64,000 nucleotides of DNA from Steroidobacteraceae bacterium (GTDB lineage: Bacteria > Pseudomonadota > Gammaproteobacteria > Steroidobacterales > Steroidobacteraceae), in assembly GCA_036493615.1 (NCBI GenBank), contig DASXPL010000002.1, forward strand, positions 1,995-65,994. Reading direction: 5' to 3'. Positions 24,780-61,188 of this stretch are shown here, one piece after another. Each line of letters starts with the position of its first letter. The stretch's first letter is position 1. The notes below the pieces were generated by a model. The model was given only the letters and a program-made list of their open reading frames with translations. It ran no database searches and was not told where the DNA came from. Made by a program: the position numbers and the translations under genes.

Positions 24780-27359
24780 GTGAGTACGCCTTCGGCCTGG
24801 ATCGTGCTCAAGTTCGGCGGCACGAGCGTCTCGAGCCTGTCCAACTGGACCAACATCGCCGCCATCGCGGCCGAGCGCCGTGCCAGTGGGGCGCGCGTGC
24901 TCATCGTGCACTCGGCCATCTCCGGCATCACCGACCGCCTGGAGCGCCTGCTGGATGCGGCCATCGGCCAGGCCCAGGAAGAGGAGCTGTGCGGGATCGA
25001 GGAGCGCCACCGGCGCCTGGGTGCCGATCTGGATGTCGCGCTGCCCGAGGAAGTCGAGCGCCACCTGGCGGAGCTGCGCGAGATCGCCGCCGGGGTGGCG
25101 CTGGTCGGGGAGGTGAGCGAGCGCACCCGCGCGCGCGTCATGGCGAGCGGGGAGCTGATGGCCACGCACATTGGCGCGCGCTTCCTGCGCGCGCGAGGCC
25201 TGGATGTCGCCTGGATGGACGCGCGCACCATGCTCAGGTCCGAGCGCGCAGGCGGGGCAGTGCGGCCCAGCATGCTCTCGGCGACCTGCAGCTTCGCCCC
25301 CGATGCGGCCCTCGAGGCGCAGCTCACCGGATTGCCGCCGATCGTCATCACCCAGGGCTTCATCGCCAGCGACGAGGACGCCAACACCGTGCTGCTCGGG
25401 CGCGGCGGCTCGGACACCTCCGCGGCCTATCTTGCGGCCAAGCTGCGCGCGCAGCGGCTGGAGATCTGGACGGATGTTCCGGGACTGTTCAGCGCCGACC
25501 CGCGCTTCACCCCGACCGCACGCCTGCTGCGCGCACTGCACTACGACGAGGCGCAGGAGATCGCCACCAGCGGGGCGAAGGTGCTGCATCCGCGCTGCAT
25601 TCTGCCGGCCCGGCAGTACCGCATCCCGCTGCACGTCTACGCCACCCAGGCCCCGCAGCTGCAGGGTACGGTGCTCGGCGCCGAGGCGGTGGACGGGGCT
25701 GCGCAGGTGAAGGCGGTGTGCACCAAGAAGGGCATCACGCTGGTGTCGATGGACAGCCCCGGGATGTGGCATCAGGTGGGCTTCCTCGCCGATGCCTTCC
25801 AGGTGTTCAAGAGCCACGGTATGTCGGTGGACCTGGTGTCCACCTCCGAGACCAACGTGACGGTCTCGCTGGATCCTGCCGCCAACACCCTCGACAACGC
25901 GCGCGTCGCGGACCTGGTGGCCGAGCTGTCACGGCTGTGCCGGGTGCAGGTGATCGGCCCGTGCGCCTCGGTGAGCCTGGTGGGGCGCAACATCCGCGCG
26001 ATCCTGCACCAGCTCGGCGGCGCCTTCGAGTTCTTCGAGGAGCAGAAGATCTACCTGGTCAGCCAGGCGGCCAACGACCTGAACTTCACCTTCGTCGTCG
26101 ATGAGAACCAGGGGCATCGCCTGGTGGAACAGCTGCACGAGCTTCTGATCCGCCCGTCGCCGGCGGATCGCGTGTTCGGTCCCACCTGGCAGCAGCTGTT
26201 CTCCAAACCCGAGGCGCGCGCGGCGCAGGGCACGCCCTGGTGGAATACGCGCCGCGTGGAGCTGTTGAGCGCCTTCGCCGCTCACGATGCCGCCTACGTG
26301 TACGACCTCGCCCAGGTGCGCACGGCGGCGCGCGCGCTGCGCGCTCTGCAGTCGATCGGCCGCGTGCATTACTCGGTGAAGGCGAACCCGCACCCGCAGG
26401 TGCTCACGGCGTTGCGCGCCGAGGGCATCGAGTTCGAGTGCGTTTCGCGCGGCGAGGTCGAGCGGCTGTTGACCCTGTTCCCGGACCTGGACCGCGCGCG
26501 CATCCTCTACACCCCGAACTTTGCCGCACGCGCCGAATACGCCTGGGCGCTCGGGGCGGGCGTGCGCGTCACCGTCGACAACACCTACGTGCTTGCCAGC
26601 TGGCCGCAGTTGTTTCGCGGCCACGACATCTTCGTGCGCATCGACACCGGCGTGGGCCGCGGCCACCATGATCACGTGCGCACCGCCGGCACGCGCTCCA
26701 AGTTCGGGGTGCAGCTGTCCGAGTCGCGCGTGCTCACCGGGCTGGCGCAGGCCGCCGGCGCGCGCATCACCGGGCTGCAGGCGCACGTGGGCAGCGGGGT
26801 GTTCGATGTCACCAGCTGGGAGCACACCGCACGCGTGCTGGCCACAGCGGCCAGGGGGTTCGAGGAGCTCCAGGTGATCGATGTCGGTGGCGGCCTCGGG
26901 GTGCCGGAGCACCCGGAACAGCCGGGCGTCGACCTCGCCAAGCTCGACACGCTGCTCATGGCCGTGCGCGCCGAGCACCCGCAGCTTGAGGTGTGGCTCG
27001 AGCCGGGACGCTACCTCATCGCCGCCGCCGGGGTGCTGCTCGCGCGCGTCACGCAGCTGAAGTCAAAGGGCGGCGTGCGTTTCGTGGGCGTGGCGACCGG
27101 CATGAACTCGCTCATCCGCCCGGCGCTGTACGGCTCCTACCACGAGATCGCCAACCTCACGCGCCTGGGCGAGCCGGCCACCGAGCCAGTGAGCGTCGTC
27201 GGCCCAATCTGCGAAAGCGCCGACGTGCTCGGCCACGACCGGCTGCTGCCGGTCACGCGCGAGGGGGACGTGCTGCTGGTGGCCAACGCCGGCGCCTACG
27301 GGCACGCGATGAGCTCGCACTACAACCTCCGGGACCCGGCGCCGGAGCTGTTCCTCTGA
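24780..27359 (+). CDS. lysA: Bifunctional aspartate kinase / diaminopimelate decarboxylase (LysC-LysA fusion)
   Basis: The N-terminal half is an aspartokinase ('VLKFGGTSV', ACT region). The C-terminal half is a PLP decarboxylase ('YSVKANPHPQVL', 'IDVGGGLGV', 'EPGRYL'). GTG start. Confidence 0.92.
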   Translation: MSTPSAWIVLKFGGTSVSSLSNWTNIAAIAAERRASGARVLIVHSAISGITDRLERLLDAAIGQAQEEELCGIEERHRRLGADLDVALPEEVERHLAELREIAAGVALVGEVSERTRARVMASGELMATHIGARFLRARGLDVAWMDARTMLRSERAGGAVRPSMLSATCSFAPDAALEAQLTGLPPIVITQGFIASDEDANTVLLGRGGSDTSAAYLAAKLRAQRLEIWTDVPGLFSADPRFTPTARLLRALHYDEAQEIATSGAKVLHPRCILPARQYRIPLHVYATQAPQLQGTVLGAEAVDGAAQVKAVCTKKGITLVSMDSPGMWHQVGFLADAFQVFKSHGMSVDLVSTSETNVTVSLDPAANTLDNARVADLVAELSRLCRVQVIGPCASVSLVGRNIRAILHQLGGAFEFFEEQKIYLVSQAANDLNFTFVVDENQGHRLVEQLHELLIRPSPADRVFGPTWQQLFSKPEARAAQGTPWWNTRRVELLSAFAAHDAAYVYDLAQVRTAARALRALQSIGRVHYSVKANPHPQVLTALRAEGIEFECVSRGEVERLLTLFPDLDRARILYTPNFAARAEYAWALGAGVRVTVDNTYVLASWPQLFRGHDIFVRIDTGVGRGHHDHVRTAGTRSKFGVQLSESRVLTGLAQAAGARITGLQAHVGSGVFDVTSWEHTARVLATAARGFEELQVIDVGGGLGVPEHPEQPGVDLAKLDTLLMAVRAEHPQLEVWLEPGRYLIAAAGVLLARVTQLKSKGGVRFVGVATGMNSLIRPALYGSYHEIANLTRLGEPATEPVSVVGPICESADVLGHDRLLPVTREGDVLLVANAGAYGHAMSSHYNLRDPAPELFL

Positions 27360-29575
27360 AGCTCAAGCGCCCCCTGATTTTCGCCGCCGGCGTGCTGCTG
27401 GTCGCCGCGCTCGGCTACGTCTGGTACCTGGATCACCTGGTCACCAGCCAGTTCGAGGGCCGGCGCTGGACGCTGCCGGCGCAGGTATATGCCGCGCCCC
27501 TGGAACTGTACGCGGGCCTGGATCTTGCGCCCGCGGAGCTCGAGCACGAGCTGCAGCGCCTGCACTACCGCCGCGCCGATGCCCTCGAGCGGCCGGGCAC
27601 CTATCGCCTCACGGGCAGTCACCTGGAAGTAGCGCTGCGTCCGGCGCGCTTTGCCGATGAGAGCCGCGCGGCGATGGTGCTCACCATCACGGCCGGGCCC
27701 AAGGCCCTGGAGGGCCTGCGCGATGCCAGCGGGCACGAGGTGCCGGTGCTGCGCCTGGAGCCGCTGCTGATCGGCAGCATCTTCCCCAGCCACGGCGAGG
27801 ACCGCATCGTGGTCTCACCCGCTGAGGTGCCCGCGCTGCTGCCGGCGGCGCTCAAGGCGGTCGAGGACCGCAAGTTCGACACGCACCACGGGGTGGACCC
27901 TGCCGGCATCCTGCGCGCGATGTGGGTGAACGCGCGCGCCGGGCAGATCGAGCAGGGCGCGAGCACGCTCACGCAGCAGCTGGTGCGCAGCTACTTCCTG
28001 GATTCGCGCCAGACCCTCTCGCGCAAGCTGCGCGAGGCGTTCATGGCGATGGCCCTGGATGCGCACTTCACCAAGGCGGACCTCATGAACGCCTACATCA
28101 ACGAGATCTTCCTCGGCCAGGACGGCGAGCGCGCCATCCACGGCTTCGGCCTCGCGAGCCAGTTCTACTTCGGCAAGCCGCTCGCGGAGCTGGACCTGTC
28201 CGAGGTGGCGCTGCTGGTGGCAATCGTGCGCGGCCCTTCCTACTACGATCCGCGCCGCCATGCCGAGCGGGCGCGCGCGCGGCGCGACCTGGTGCTCAAG
28301 GTAATGGCCGAGCAGGGCATCGTGACGCCGGCGCAGGCCAGCGCCGCCGCGCACCGTCCGCTCGGGGTCAGCGCGCGCCCTGCCGGGGCGTACTTCCCCG
28401 CATACCTGGACTTCGTGCGCCGCACGCTGCGCCGCGACTATCACGAGGCGGACCTCACCGAGGCGGGCCTGCGCATCTACACCAGCCTCGAGCCACGCGC
28501 CCAGGAGGAGAGCGAGCGGGCGCTCGAGCAGGAGCTGGCGCGGCTGGACAAGCTGAAGAAGCACGCCGGGCAGTCCCTCGAGGGCGCGGTGGTGGTGACT
28601 GCGCCCCAGAGCGGGGACGTGATTGCCATCGTCGGCGGCCGCGATGTCGGCTACGACGGCTTTGACCGCGCCCTCGATGCCCACCGCTCCATGGGCTCGC
28701 TGGTGAAGCCGTTCATCTACCTGACCGCGCTGGAGAGCGGCCGCTACAATGCCACCACGGTGGTGCAGGATGAGCCGGTGGACGTGAAGCTCGAGGGCGG
28801 CAAGCACTGGAAGCCGGAGAACTTCACCCGCCAGGTGTACGGCCCGGTGCCGGTGGTACGCGCACTCTCCGAGTCGCTGAACCTTGCCACCGTCGGAGTC
28901 GGGCTGGACTTAGGACTGGCGAAGGTGGCGCAGACGCTGACGCGCTTCGGCCTTCCCGAACCGCCGGTGGCGGTGCCGGCGATGCTCCTGGGTGCGGTCG
29001 ATGTCTCCCCGCTCACCGCGGCGCAGATGTTCAATGGCATCGCCAACGGCGGCTTCCACAACCCGCTGCGCGCGGTGCGCGCGGTGATCTCAGGCGACGG
29101 CAAGGCCGTGAAGGCCTTCCCGCTGCAGGTGACCCAGGTGGCATCGCCGGAGAATGTCTACCAGCTGGACCGCATGATGGTGCTGGTGATGGAGCACGGC
29201 ACGGGGCGCTCCGCGCGCGCCGTGCTGCCGCCGGCCCTCACGGTGGCGGGCAAGTCGGGGACCTCCTCGGACTACCGCGACAGCTGGTTCGCCGGCTTCT
29301 CCGGCAGCCACCTGGTGGTGGTGTGGGTGGGGTATGACGACAACGAGCCCACCGGCTTTACCGGCTCGGCCGGTGCGCTGCCGGTGTGGGCGCGCATCAT
29401 GGCCAACCTGGGGACGCGCTCCTGGGAGACGGCGATGCCGGAGAGCCTCACCGAGGCTTCGATCGAGTTCGACACCGGGCTGCGCGCCCAGGCGGACTGT
29501 GGGACGGACCTGGTCGTGGTTGCAGTGCCCGCCGGGACGGCGATCGCGCCCAAGCCCGGCTGCAGCCTGCATTGA
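27356..29575 (+). CDS. mrcB: Penicillin-binding protein 1B (glycosyltransferase/transpeptidase)
   Basis: Contains 'FEGRRWTLPAQVYA', the GT51 motifs 'EDRKFDTHHGVD' and 'GASTLTQQLV', and a transpeptidase domain. The start is inferred as CTG at 27356 (see findings). Confidence 0.85.
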   Translation: MKLKRPLIFAAGVLLVAALGYVWYLDHLVTSQFEGRRWTLPAQVYAAPLELYAGLDLAPAELEHELQRLHYRRADALERPGTYRLTGSHLEVALRPARFADESRAAMVLTITAGPKALEGLRDASGHEVPVLRLEPLLIGSIFPSHGEDRIVVSPAEVPALLPAALKAVEDRKFDTHHGVDPAGILRAMWVNARAGQIEQGASTLTQQLVRSYFLDSRQTLSRKLREAFMAMALDAHFTKADLMNAYINEIFLGQDGERAIHGFGLASQFYFGKPLAELDLSEVALLVAIVRGPSYYDPRRHAERARARRDLVLKVMAEQGIVTPAQASAAAHRPLGVSARPAGAYFPAYLDFVRRTLRRDYHEADLTEAGLRIYTSLEPRAQEESERALEQELARLDKLKKHAGQSLEGAVVVTAPQSGDVIAIVGGRDVGYDGFDRALDAHRSMGSLVKPFIYLTALESGRYNATTVVQDEPVDVKLEGGKHWKPENFTRQVYGPVPVVRALSESLNLATVGVGLDLGLAKVAQTLTRFGLPEPPVAVPAMLLGAVDVSPLTAAQMFNGIANGGFHNPLRAVRAVISGDGKAVKAFPLQVTQVASPENVYQLDRMMVLVMEHGTGRSARAVLPPALTVAGKSGTSSDYRDSWFAGFSGSHLVVVWVGYDDNEPTGFTGSAGALPVWARIMANLGTRSWETAMPESLTEASIEFDTGLRAQADCGTDLVVVAVPAGTAIAPKPGCSLH

Positions 29576-59152: not shown

Positions 59153-59168
59153 GGCGGCGGCCGCCGCC
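59153..59168. terminator. 16-bp perfect GC palindrome between convergent genes (possible bidirectional terminator stem)
   Basis: GGCGGCGGCCGCCGCC lies between the addA-like stop and the TIR-gene stop. There is no U-tract. Confidence 0.3.
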
Positions 59169-59172
59169 TGAG

Positions 59173-61188
59173 CTAGGGCGGAAGATTCATCTTGCGTACA
59201 AACGCCGCGTAGCGCGGGTCCGGGCGCAGGGAGTCGAGCAGAGGATCGCTCTTCAGCCGCGTCAGCCCGCCGTCGCGCTGCAGGTAGGCGCGCTCGAGCC
59301 AGCTGAACGCCTGGTCCGTCTCGCCGCGCCAGGCGTACATCTCGGCGATCTGGAACGCCGCGAAGCGGCCGGCCTCGGCGATCACGCGCTCAAGGGCCGC
59401 CTTCGATTCCGGCTCGTGCCCCAGGGCGTGCTGCACCAGGCAGGCGGCGATGTCCCGCCAACCGCCGAGGTTGCCCACCTGGGGACCGGAGATGCGGGCC
59501 AGGCCCTGCTCGGGGTGGCCGGCGAACATGTCGACGATGGCCAGCTGGGCGATGGCGCGCGAGTTGTCCGGGTCCAACTCGAGCCAGCGCTCAAAATCGG
59601 CACGGGCCCCGGGCAGGTCGTGGGCGGCGATCAGGATCAGCCCGCGCGTGTTGAACCAGGCGGCCCGCAGCGGATCCAGGCGGATCACCTTGTTCACGGC
59701 CGCCAGCGCGCCCGGCACGTCACCGGTCGCCTCGAGCAGCAGGACGTAGCCGTACAGGGCCTCGGCATTGTTCGGGTCCAGCGCCAGTGCCTTCTGGAAA
59801 TCAGCGCGCGCACCTGCAAAGTCCCACAACCACAGAGTGCGCAGGTAACCGCGGGCGAAGTAGCCGTCCGCCTGCCCGGGCGCGAGGGCGATGGCGCGCT
59901 CGGCATCCCCGACACCGCGCTTCAGTCCCGACTCGTCCCCGGTCTGGTCAGTGTAGTAGGCCTCCGCGAGTGCGAGCCGCGAGTAGGCGCTGGCGTAGCG
60001 CGGATCCAGCGCGATGGCCTTGCGGAATGCCTGTTCGGCGGCGGCGAACCCTGCCGGGGTCGCCCGCTCCAGCAGGTTCCTGCCCAGCAGGTACTGGTTG
60101 TAGGCCTCGGTATTTGCCGCGCGCCCGGTGCTGGCGGAGGAGGGCAGCGACACCTGCAGCGCCGCCACGACCTGCGCGGCGATCTCGTCCTGGACCTTGA
60201 AGATGTCCTGCGCGGGGCGGTCGTAGGTCTTTGACCACACGTGGTAGCCGTTGTCGGCACGGATCAGCTGCGCGGTGATCCTCAGGGTGTTGCCGGACTT
60301 GCGCACGCTGCCCTCGAGCACGTGGGCGACACCGAGGGCCTTGGCGATCTCGGCGATGGTTGCGTGCTGTCCCTTGAAGTAGAAGGAAGAGGTGCGCGCC
60401 GGCACGTGCAGGTCCGGGACCTTGCTGAGCATGTCGATCAGCTCCTCCGACAGCCCGTCCGAGAAATACTCCTGGTCCTTCTTCTCGCTCATGTCGGCGA
60501 AGGGCAGCACGGCGATCGAGCGCTCGGGGGCTTCGGCCCTGGCCACCGGCGGCGGGGCGGGCGGGCTCGGTGTGAGCGGGGCCTGCCCGCGCCAGGGCTT
60601 CAGGAGCAGTGCGCCGGCCACCGCGAGCGCGGCGAGACCGCCCAGGATCCAGCCGGTGAGCCTCGGGCTCTTTGCCTTCGTCGCCGGCAATGATGCGACC
60701 TGCGGCTGCTGGGGCGCCGGGGTTGCCTCGACTCCGGTAAGGAGCGTGGCAATGCGCTGGCAGAATGCCGCGGGCGTGGCGCCCTGCGGCAGGCGCGTCC
60801 ACTGCACGCGGTGGAACGAATCCGGCAGGTCGGCCGTGCCTTCGGGGGTTGCGTCCACGCACACCGGGACGATGAAGGCCTTGTTGCGGGCGATCATCTG
60901 CGTGCGGTGATCGGCGATCGCCCACTCGAGGCGGAAATAACCCTCGGGCCGTGAGGCGGTGTGCTCGGAGATGATCGGCACGAAGAGCGCGCAGTCACGG
61001 ATCTGGTTGCGGATCTTCTGGTCCCAGGCGTCCCCGCCGCGCAACTCGCTCTGATCGAACCAGACCTCGAGGCCGGCCGCGCGCAGCGACTCGCAGATGC
61101 GCCGTGCCGCGGTCGCATCCTGCGAGGCGTAGCTGAGGAAGACGGCGTGCCCGGCGGGGGTGCTCATGGTGGGCACGACCGCGGGCAC
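59173..61188 (-). CDS. TIR-domain transmembrane protein with periplasmic TolB-N-like module and TPR repeats
   Basis: TIR motifs are 'AVFLSYASQD', 'EVWFDQSELRGGDAW' and 'FVPIISEHTASRPEGYFRLEWAIA'. The transmembrane helix is 'LTGWILGGLAALAVAGALLL'. The periplasmic module is 'SIAVLPFADMS...YFSDGLSEELI...LEGSVRKSGNTLRITAQL', followed by TPR-like repeats to the C-terminus. Start is GTG 61188 or ATG 61167. Confidence 0.8.
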   Translation of the reverse strand: MPAVVPTMSTPAGHAVFLSYASQDATAARRICESLRAAGLEVWFDQSELRGGDAWDQKIRNQIRDCALFVPIISEHTASRPEGYFRLEWAIADHRTQMIARNKAFIVPVCVDATPEGTADLPDSFHRVQWTRLPQGATPAAFCQRIATLLTGVEATPAPQQPQVASLPATKAKSPRLTGWILGGLAALAVAGALLLKPWRGQAPLTPSPPAPPPVARAEAPERSIAVLPFADMSEKKDQEYFSDGLSEELIDMLSKVPDLHVPARTSSFYFKGQHATIAEIAKALGVAHVLEGSVRKSGNTLRITAQLIRADNGYHVWSKTYDRPAQDIFKVQDEIAAQVVAALQVSLPSSASTGRAANTEAYNQYLLGRNLLERATPAGFAAAEQAFRKAIALDPRYASAYSRLALAEAYYTDQTGDESGLKRGVGDAERAIALAPGQADGYFARGYLRTLWLWDFAGARADFQKALALDPNNAEALYGYVLLLEATGDVPGALAAVNKVIRLDPLRAAWFNTRGLILIAAHDLPGARADFERWLELDPDNSRAIAQLAIVDMFAGHPEQGLARISGPQVGNLGGWRDIAACLVQHALGHEPESKAALERVIAEAGRFAAFQIAEMYAWRGETDQAFSWLERAYLQRDGGLTRLKSDPLLDSLRPDPRYAAFVRKMNLPP

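Follow-up and report, generated by a model that had tools for sequence, protein, structure and literature searches.

The 64,000-nucleotide window analysed here (positions 1,995 to 65,994 of contig DASXPL010000002.1, assembly GCA_036493615.1, from a Steroidobacteraceae bacterium) carries on its reverse strand, at window positions 59173-61188, an open reading frame (ORF) whose product joins an N-terminal TIR domain, one predicted transmembrane helix, a TolB-like domain and an array of tetratricopeptide repeats (TPRs). We propose, with a probability of about 0.5, that this protein is a stand-alone bitopic receptor in which self-association driven by the ectodomain would switch on a cytosolic TIR enzyme that cleaves NAD+ (nicotinamide adenine dinucleotide), that is, a NADase. 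The architecture itself was read directly with sequence and structure tools: the domains and their folds, the conservation of the site, the lack of partner genes and the expansion of paralogues.

The TIR domain and its predicted catalytic glutamate

The N-terminal domain matches Pfam TIR_2 (PF13676) over aa 16-142 with E=8.4e-23 (81.6 bits, above the curated cut-off of 28), which confirms the TIR_2-like domain that a first-pass annotation had placed at the start of the ORF; all motifs quoted there (AVFLSYASQD, EVWFDQSELRGGDAW, FVPIISEHTASRPEGYFRLEWAIA and, further on, the SIAVLPF module) were found in their places. Profile matches of the domain in the PDB are PdTIR, AbTIR and the TIR-APAZ chains of SPARTA. 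The same annotation had compared by eye a glutamate near position 88 with the catalytic residue of NAD+-cleaving TIR domains. The family profile aligns with the SPARTA TIR-APAZ chains across the whole TIR, and E88 falls opposite the proven catalytic glutamate E77, in "REGVLKE77L". In SPARTA, the E77A substitution serves as the catalytic-dead control (PMC10474274), NADase activity needs self-association of the TIR domains via the BB-loop (PMC10474274), and the active site includes a contribution of the adjacent TIR (PMC10474274).

Conservation points to the same residue. E88 is invariant in two alignments (35/35 and 96/96 relatives), and the surrounding motif R80-x-E82-G-Y84-F-R-x-E88-W89 is invariant among the 96 full-length representatives of 50%-identity clusters; in their BB-loops L49, G52 and W55 never change, while R50, G51 and D53 are nearly invariant. 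Helix alphaC spans aa 84-100 in the AlphaFold model, and E88 stands one turn after the aromatic Y84, in the canonical W/Y-x-x-x-E geometry. D93 was also considered as the catalytic acid and rejected, as family members have V, D, A or I at this position. Based on the SPARTA profile alignment, the conservation and the helix position, we accept E88 by homology as the predicted catalytic glutamate, and the TIR domain is a probable NAD-cleaving enzyme.

The mean pairwise identity of the TIR domain among the 96 representatives is 63%, with many invariant surface motifs. Such a conservation of the whole TIR surface would also suit a non-enzymatic interaction scaffold, comparable to Toll-like receptors (TLRs) and MyD88, that recruits an unlinked partner or its own paralogues on engagement of the ectodomain, and the conserved TIR and TolB-like parts could let paralogues co-assemble. 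Non-enzymatic TIRs, however, commonly lose the catalytic glutamate, whereas here this residue and its motif are invariant in every relative inspected; moreover, no candidate partner is linked to the gene in 86 related loci. We consider a pure scaffold improbable.

The membrane helix and its orientation

The sole hydrophobic helix of the protein (aa 177-195, LTGWILGGLAALAVAGALL; Kyte-Doolittle mean 1.96) lies between the TIR domain and the remainder, and a search of the ORF for an N-terminal signal-like segment found none, in agreement with the single helix without signal peptide of the first reading. The hydrophobic block is kept in 94% of the relatives (219/232), though its sequence is not conserved. 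Because the positive-inside bias proved weak (net flank charge of +2.6 on the N side and +1.5 on the C side in the 219 relatives), cysteine content was used for topology, depletion of cysteine being the expected signature of an exported domain. In 201 relatives containing the helix, the TIR domain has 1.98 Cys per 100 aa and the ectodomain 0.16, a 12-fold depletion, and 112 of the 201 have no Cys at all in the C-terminal part of about 450 aa. In the few relatives without the helix, the region equivalent to the ectodomain contains 0.58 Cys per 100 aa.

The absence of a signal peptide on a large folded N-terminal domain of 170 aa, the cysteine depletion of the ectodomain, and the fold relatives of the domain behind the helix, which are envelope proteins only, lead to a strong inference: a bitopic N-in/C-out inner-membrane protein, with the TIR domain inside and the repeats outside. 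The arrangement first suggested, a cytoplasmic TIR and periplasmic repeats, is thus favoured by fold relatives and cysteines, and the charge bias leans the same way only weakly.

A weak charge bias would also fit a hydrophobic segment that is not a membrane span, or a reversed topology, with TIR and repeats in a single compartment or the TIR outside; the protein would then be a cytoplasmic TIR-TPR protein like its relatives without the helix. About 6% of the TIR relatives have a Pro/Ala linker and no transmembrane helix, one rhizobial cyclase that we examined also lacks the helix, and the AlphaFold model has low confidence in the segment. A 19-residue segment of this hydrophobicity, kept so widely despite the divergence of its sequence, and a cysteine depletion that sets in specifically C-terminal to the segment and is relaxed in the relatives without helix, make this explanation very unlikely.

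Among the cluster representatives, six (P0190, P0204, P0212, P0230, P0257 and P0266) have a Pro/Ala linker in place of the hydrophobic segment between TIR and TolB-like domain, with more Cys (2-6) in their C-terminal part; these are presumably wholly cytoplasmic versions.

The TolB-like domain and the TPR array

Behind the helix, the TolB-like module SIAVLPF...YFSDGLSEELI...LEGSVRKSGNTLRITAQLI occupies aa 224-310. Since TPR proteins dominated the Foldseek results of the full-length model, this domain was modelled separately (aa 216-352; predicted local distance difference test, pLDDT, 90.8). Its Foldseek matches are the lipoprotein GNA1162, PelC, FlgT, the N-terminal domain of TolB, LpoB and the periplasmic domain of CadC (E 8e-8 to 2e-4); for the first five, E ranges from 8e-8 to 7e-6 and the TM-score from 0.57 to 0.68, the TolB N-terminal domain being matched at a TM-score of about 0.63-0.65 and a root-mean-square deviation of about 3.5 A. 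The TolB-N character attributed earlier to the module after the helix is therefore borne out by its fold (E~1e-7 to TolB, PelC, FlgT and LpoB), and all structural relatives of the domain at aa 222-350 are cell-envelope proteins. By profile, Pfam FlgO (PF17680) gives the window domain 19.6 bits against a cut-off of 22.6, yet matches 17/17 family members (best E=2e-5); TolB_N (PF04052) matches 1/17, weakly, and matches of CsgG and FlgT_M are scattered.

The repeats announced at first pass up to the C-terminus are indeed TPRs. Pfam TPR families match at aa ~380-565 with E 1e-15 to 1e-8 (TPR_17, TPR_19, TPR_11 and TPR_2 above their cut-offs), and the NCBIfam end-cap TPR_END_plus follows at aa 610-664. 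The full-length AlphaFold model (mean pLDDT 79, above 90 over most repeats) shows about 8 helix pairs, with paired helices at aa 360-636 (pLDDT >90), and Foldseek returns TPR proteins for this model. Over the ectodomain NCBIfam further gives a weak but long match to the HilA/EilA model (aa 222-521, E=1e-10) and a weak one to CadC (aa 234-416). "TolB-N-like/TPR ectodomain" is an accurate description, and the nearest characterised analogue of the whole ectodomain is CadC.

The same module on other outputs

The nearest relatives of the TolB-like module without a TIR are rhizobial "adenylate/guanylate cyclase domain-containing proteins" (58-59% identity over aa 224-336), found in 567 plasmid records with at most 12 matching places per megaplasmid. 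Because these cyclases share the TolB-like/TPR module, JGI names TIR family members 'adenylate cyclase'. In one of them, WP_024318501.1, a Guanylate_cyc domain is followed by a proline-rich linker without hydrophobic helix, the TolB-like domain and TPRs; this protein lies at L087:2398-4176, on plasmid pT136c of Rhizobium sp. T136. HilA, too, is cytoplasmic.

The module alone does not identify a periplasmic sensor, because it occurs in the cytoplasm in the TIR relatives without helix, in this cyclase and in HilA. The first-pass annotation had presented it as part of a periplasmic sensor; its presence in other signalling proteins stands, while an intrinsically periplasmic nature does not, given these same three cases. 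The winged helix-turn-helix (wHTH), class III cyclase and TIR outputs work only as dimers or oligomers, and because all the attached outputs share this need, we suggest that the TolB-like/TPR module mediates self-association under the control of a ligand and can serve in the cytoplasm as well as in the periplasm. In the studied protein and 94% of its relatives, the module would be placed outside.

Seven predicted proteins of 1843-2837 aa (P0121, P0124, P0149, P0183, P0192, P0222 and P0256) contain 4-7 matched stretches each, all in the TolB-like region, and no TIR motif was found in them; these could be genuine proteins built of several modules, or tandem arrays whose gene calls were merged.

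A large family with conserved TIR domains and variable repeats

The full-length protein as query drew at least 8000 candidates, and identity among the 120 matches listed runs from 72% down to about 50%. A query of aa 1-350 gave 10,603 matches at E<=1e-30 among 1.84 billion cluster representatives; the best 150 of these, representing 50%-identity clusters, all have E<1e-96, and most show the layout of TIR, transmembrane helix and AVLPF motif. With two TIR-specific peptide patterns, at least 598 loci were confirmed among species-representative genomes. The best 80 of these loci belong mostly to Steroidobacteraceae and unclassified Gammaproteobacteria, with some Burkholderiales and Casimicrobiaceae and one Verrucomicrobium, and single genomes supply 3-5 of them. 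Tandem arrays reach four copies (L083).

Mean pairwise identity among the 96 representatives is 63% for the TIR, 58% for the TolB-like domain and 26% for the TPRs, a contrast inflated by the selection of these representatives with aa 1-350. The same gradient, from the better conserved TIR and TolB-like domains to the TPRs, is found among the relatives that the full-length query retrieved and between tandem paralogues, most of which share 22-66% identity in the TPRs. The family thus behaves as a diversified receptor repertoire, with a conserved output, variable sensors and several paralogues per genome.

Two tandem arrays were looked at more closely. At L083:641-11152, four family genes stand head to tail, with ORFs of about 830 aa; identity between the copies is 85-99% in the TIR, 74-90% in the TolB-like domain and 57-66% in the TPRs. 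On the contig CAWDKU010000001.1 of a metagenome-assembled genome (MAG), the tandem paralogues L061:3797-5809 and L061:5992-8004 are mosaic: the first ~360 nt (TIR core) are only 59-84% identical, the next ~450 nt (C-terminal end of the TIR, linker, transmembrane helix and start of the TolB-like domain) 99-100%, and what follows 82-100%. This pattern suggests gene conversion or module swapping between paralogues.

We found no published description of the architecture TIR, transmembrane helix, TolB-like domain and TPRs in a literature coverage that was incomplete; a TIR survey mentions only actinobacterial TIR-TPR proteins. The gene had been put forward earlier as a candidate for a novel system. 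What is new is an unstudied family and the outside-in TIR signalling that it implies; as a one-off novelty of this window the claim falls, since the locus is already generically annotated and belongs to a very large family with thousands of relatives and many paralogues.

Gene neighbourhood

No ThsA, SIR2, SLOG, STING or CD-NTase gene lies next to the TIR gene. All high-GC3 ORFs (rich in G+C at third codon positions) of 86 related loci were clustered as a test for conserved neighbours, and the only widely recurring groups were the family itself and an antisense-ORF artefact of it; next came PAS histidine kinases, in 8 of the 86 loci, which is background-like. A conserved partner gene was accordingly rejected, no neighbour family being kept across the 86 loci, and the absence of an adjoining partner remarked on at first pass extends to the whole set.

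Upstream on the same strand, at a gap of about 99 bp, lie gspG-N of a type II secretion system (T2SS), with gspL/M/N adjacent; no terminator is predicted between the gsp genes and the TIR gene, and a promoter/terminator scan around the gene was uninformative. Together with the fold relatives of the TolB-like domain, which are components of envelope machines, this arrangement could speak for a protein that mainly serves envelope assembly or structure, as a T2SS accessory or as a PelC/LpoB/FlgT-like scaffold for peptidoglycan or secretion, with a secondary role of the TIR. The adjacency is absent, however, from all other loci examined. In the closest relatives the family gene comes after an MltF-like gene, often with a paralogue behind it, and in others it stands between pterin dehydratase/ispG and ubiH-like genes or in a glycine-cleavage/ispG context. 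Multi-copy tandem arrays are unexpected for a machine subunit, and the TIR is the most conserved part of the protein. We hold a role of this kind to be very doubtful, and the T2SS link implied by the first-pass annotation is dropped as an incidental feature of this genome.

On the other side, addB/addA-like genes are convergent with the TIR gene. The window as a whole is core chromosome (leuA/C, ilvD, ETF, exbB, PBP1b, an oligopeptide ABC transporter). A tblastn search of 50,697 phage records found no phage relatives; IMG/VR contains one TIR fragment and some TolB/TPR-only relatives, with essentially no viral-contig association, and plasmid matches are nearly all of the cyclase-TolB-TPR type on rhizobial megaplasmids, apart from one TIR+TolB match of 33% identity in Novosphingobium. 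An origin from a phage or mobile element was rejected on the basis of these phage and plasmid results.

At one related locus (L001:3737-8359), a SIR2_2-TIR_2 fusion gene is followed by an nSTAND1 NTPase with TPRs, a pair resembling defence types; it lies ~2-6 kb upstream of a homologue of 70-72% identity and has no counterpart at the syntenic loci L002 and L003.

Comparison with known systems

PADLOC assigns the protein to no system, and its membership of a known defence system was rejected, as PADLOC and NCBIfam matches are partial and confined to the TIR domain. The closest likeness is to the TIR-APAZ protein of SPARTA: both have a TIR_2-type domain (the best PADLOC match is Aga_TIR, E=6e-15) and the motif (R/K)-x-E-G-x-x-(R/K)-E, and the expected principle of activation, a TIR-TIR assembly that forms the active site, would be the same. 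With AbTIR and PdTIR, the studied TIR shares a BB-loop of the G-D type. In contrast to SPARTA, it has no APAZ domain, Argonaute partner or nucleic-acid sensing, and no prokaryotic Argonaute gene lies nearby; unlike all three, it would be anchored in the membrane and linked to a domain outside the cytoplasm. Thoeris differs in that no ThsA-type gene is adjacent here or conserved across the 86 loci, and ThsB models match only in part (E=0.002-0.01). As to CBASS and Pycsar, the PADLOC SAVED_TIR match covers the TIR only (aa 8-78), and there is no CD-NTase or PycC gene nearby.

CadC and ToxR offer the layout predicted here: an N-terminal cytoplasmic output, one transmembrane helix and a periplasmic alpha/beta subdomain followed by a helical-repeat one. 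Foldseek matches the periplasmic domain of CadC (3ly7/8/9/a) over about 300 residues with E 5e-6 to 2e-5. Here, however, the output is TIR_2, with no match to Trans_reg_C (wHTH), the TPR array is canonical and much longer than in CadC, and identity to CadC is only about 12%. The rhizobial cyclases and HilA/EilA likewise have an N-terminal output that needs dimerisation and then the TolB-like module, followed by TPRs in the cyclases, but their output is a cyclase or a wHTH instead of a TIR, and in the cyclase example the module is cytoplasmic, there being no transmembrane helix.

Like TLRs and the interleukin-1 receptor (IL-1R), the protein would cross the membrane once, with a solenoid-repeat sensor outside the cytoplasm and the TIR inside, and its family likewise combines a conserved TIR with diversified ectodomains and multiple paralogues. 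It differs in its N-terminal TIR, its predicted type II orientation and its TPRs instead of leucine-rich repeats or immunoglobulin domains, and in that its TIR keeps the catalytic glutamate, so that an enzyme is more probable than an adaptor scaffold. We regard the likeness as analogy or convergence, not orthology. In SARM1, TIR-STING, TIR-SAVED and TIR-NLR/Avs-type proteins, one polypeptide couples a sensor to a TIR NADase switched by oligomerisation; those proteins are cytosolic and have intracellular ligands, while the sensor here would lie across the membrane. No STING, SAVED, ARM/SAM or NTPase domain was found in the studied protein with Pfam, NCBIfam and PADLOC profiles.

Proposed mechanism and its weighing

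Beyond the architecture, we infer that the TIR cleaves NAD+, that oligomerisation activates it, and what kind of signal is involved. At rest, the TIR domains would stay separate and inactive. A ligand from the periplasm or the envelope would bind the variable TPR surface and so change the self-association of the ectodomain; alternatively, the trigger may be altered interactions of the conserved TolB-like domain. The cytoplasmic TIRs would then be brought together head to tail, so that the BB-loop (SELRGGDAWD) of one TIR completes the site formed around E88 in the adjoining one. Cleavage of NAD+ would follow, with NAD+ depletion or an ADP-ribose-derived signal as the outcome. The variable TPR surface would be the specificity element, while the conserved TolB-like domain and the TIR would serve transmission and output.

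Several points weigh against this model. Single-sequence phmmer alignments to AbTIR and PdTIR disagree around helix alphaC (R86/E88 or W89+D93), and the family-profile alignments to these two proteins end before that helix. The conservation of the TIR reaches far beyond the active site and could equally reflect a conserved protein partner. The positive-inside bias is only weak, and the TolB-like/TPR module works in the cytoplasm too. The gene has housekeeping genes around it, outside any defence island or mobile element, and has no relatives in the phage records. Finally, a genome with several NADase 'suicide' receptors would run a risk; therefore, a signalling or tightly regulated role is favoured over simple NAD depletion.

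A related possibility keeps the same architecture and has the TIR, in place of depleting NAD+, make a diffusible nucleotide signal (a cyclic ADP-ribose isomer or an ADP-ribose adduct) that is read by an effector or regulator encoded elsewhere; this would be genuine second-messenger signalling from outside to inside, as an analogue of the cyclase-TolB-TPR proteins. The closest relatives of the TolB-like module sit on adenylate/guanylate cyclases, many paralogues per genome and a housekeeping context fit signalling better than suicide, and TIRs producing signalling nucleotides are established in Thoeris and plants. Yet no gene for a receptor or effector of such a signal is linked in any of the 86 loci, and the best similarity of the TIR is to NAD-depleting TIRs of the SPARTA type, which leaves this version a serious rival, less likely than the main reading but more so than the scaffold considered above. 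We retain the receptor with an ectodomain-switched NADase. More tentatively, the family may form an expanded repertoire of transmembrane TIR receptors of soil and freshwater Proteobacteria (mainly Steroidobacteraceae and related Gamma- and Betaproteobacteria) that sense extracellular or envelope ligands and signal across the inner membrane through clustering of the conserved TIR NADase; candidate ligands for the variable TPR ectodomains would be components of phages or predators, peptides and cell-wall fragments.

Gene boundaries, feature coordinates and other observations in the window

The ORF has a GC3 of 0.90, which matches the real genes of this window of 72% G+C, and is open for 671 codons from GTG 61188. 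Homologues start 7 residues further downstream, at ATG 61167, and the 664-aa product from this codon is identical to the deposited HEY2807299.1 (NCBI; Steroidobacteraceae MAG), annotated "TIR domain-containing protein" and named "TolB-like protein" by JGI. The true start is probably ATG 61167, not GTG 61188; no clear Shine-Dalgarno sequence was seen before either codon.

Table 1. Features of the TIR gene and its product in window coordinates.
Feature	Coordinates	Strand	Residues	Basis and remarks
Whole ORF	59173..61188	-	671 aa from GTG 61188; 664 aa from ATG 61167	product from ATG 61167 = HEY2807299.1
TIR domain, TIR_2 type, predicted cytoplasmic	60739..61149	-	aa 14-150	Pfam TIR_2; BB-loop motif SELRGGDAWD
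Codon of E88, predicted catalytic Glu	60925..60927	-	E88	aligns to SPARTA TIR-APAZ E77; 96/96 invariant
Pro/Ala-rich low-complexity linker, predicted cytoplasmic	60661..60738	-	aa 151-176	pLDDT <50; 18% mean family identity
Predicted transmembrane helix (LTGWILGGLAALAVAGALL)	60604..60660	-	aa 177-195	Kyte-Doolittle mean 1.96; counterpart in 219/232 relatives
TolB-N/PelC/FlgO-fold alpha/beta domain, juxtamembrane, predicted periplasmic	60139..60525	-	aa 222-350	model, Foldseek, FlgO
TPR superhelix, predicted periplasmic	59371..60126	-	aa 355-606	~7 helix pairs; most variable part of the family; Pfam, model, Foldseek
C-terminal TPR end-cap	59197..59361	-	aa 610-664	NCBIfam NF047558 TPR_END_plus, E=1.9e-8, 34.1 bits vs 32

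Opposite the coding region of the TIR and TolB-like domains, a conserved-looking antisense ORF lies at 60392-60910 (+). ORFs of this kind (130-170 aa) occur one in each of 64 related loci; as 71/77 overlap the family gene, the ORF was rejected as a gene and taken for a high-GC artefact. The 27-bp gap between the stops of the convergent addA-like and TIR genes is mostly filled by a perfect 16-bp GC palindrome (GGCGGCGGCCGCCGCC, 59153-59168), which could be the stem of a bidirectional terminator, but lacks a T-run. Elsewhere in the window, an ORF at 24780-27359 (+) fuses an aspartokinase (AA_kinase + ACT) to a domain of the diaminopimelate-decarboxylase type and runs for 367 nt into a PBP1b-like gene as called at 26993-29575 (+; UB2H, transglycosylase and transpeptidase), whose real start is probably further downstream.

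Significance

To our knowledge, the experimentally characterised bacterial TIR systems all sense intracellular events, namely phage proteins, nucleic acids or second messengers. If the TIR were inactive, or the protein a structural envelope factor, what remains would be a domain fusion of the usual kind. A TIR enzyme connected to a periplasmic sensor would, if true, open a new input route for TIR/NAD+ immunity and signalling, namely the surveillance of envelope and exterior. Bacteria would then have their first known TIR pathway that signals from outside to inside, one that parallels TLRs in function but works with enzymatic instead of adaptor TIRs. A bacterial counterpart of the TLR layout would also help to judge how many times a repeat ectodomain, a single transmembrane helix and a TIR have been combined in evolution. 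The sensor module, which also drives cyclases and DNA-binding domains, could supply a portable module for ligand-controlled dimerisation. As the family is large, multi-copy and modular, working out one member would annotate thousands of genes.

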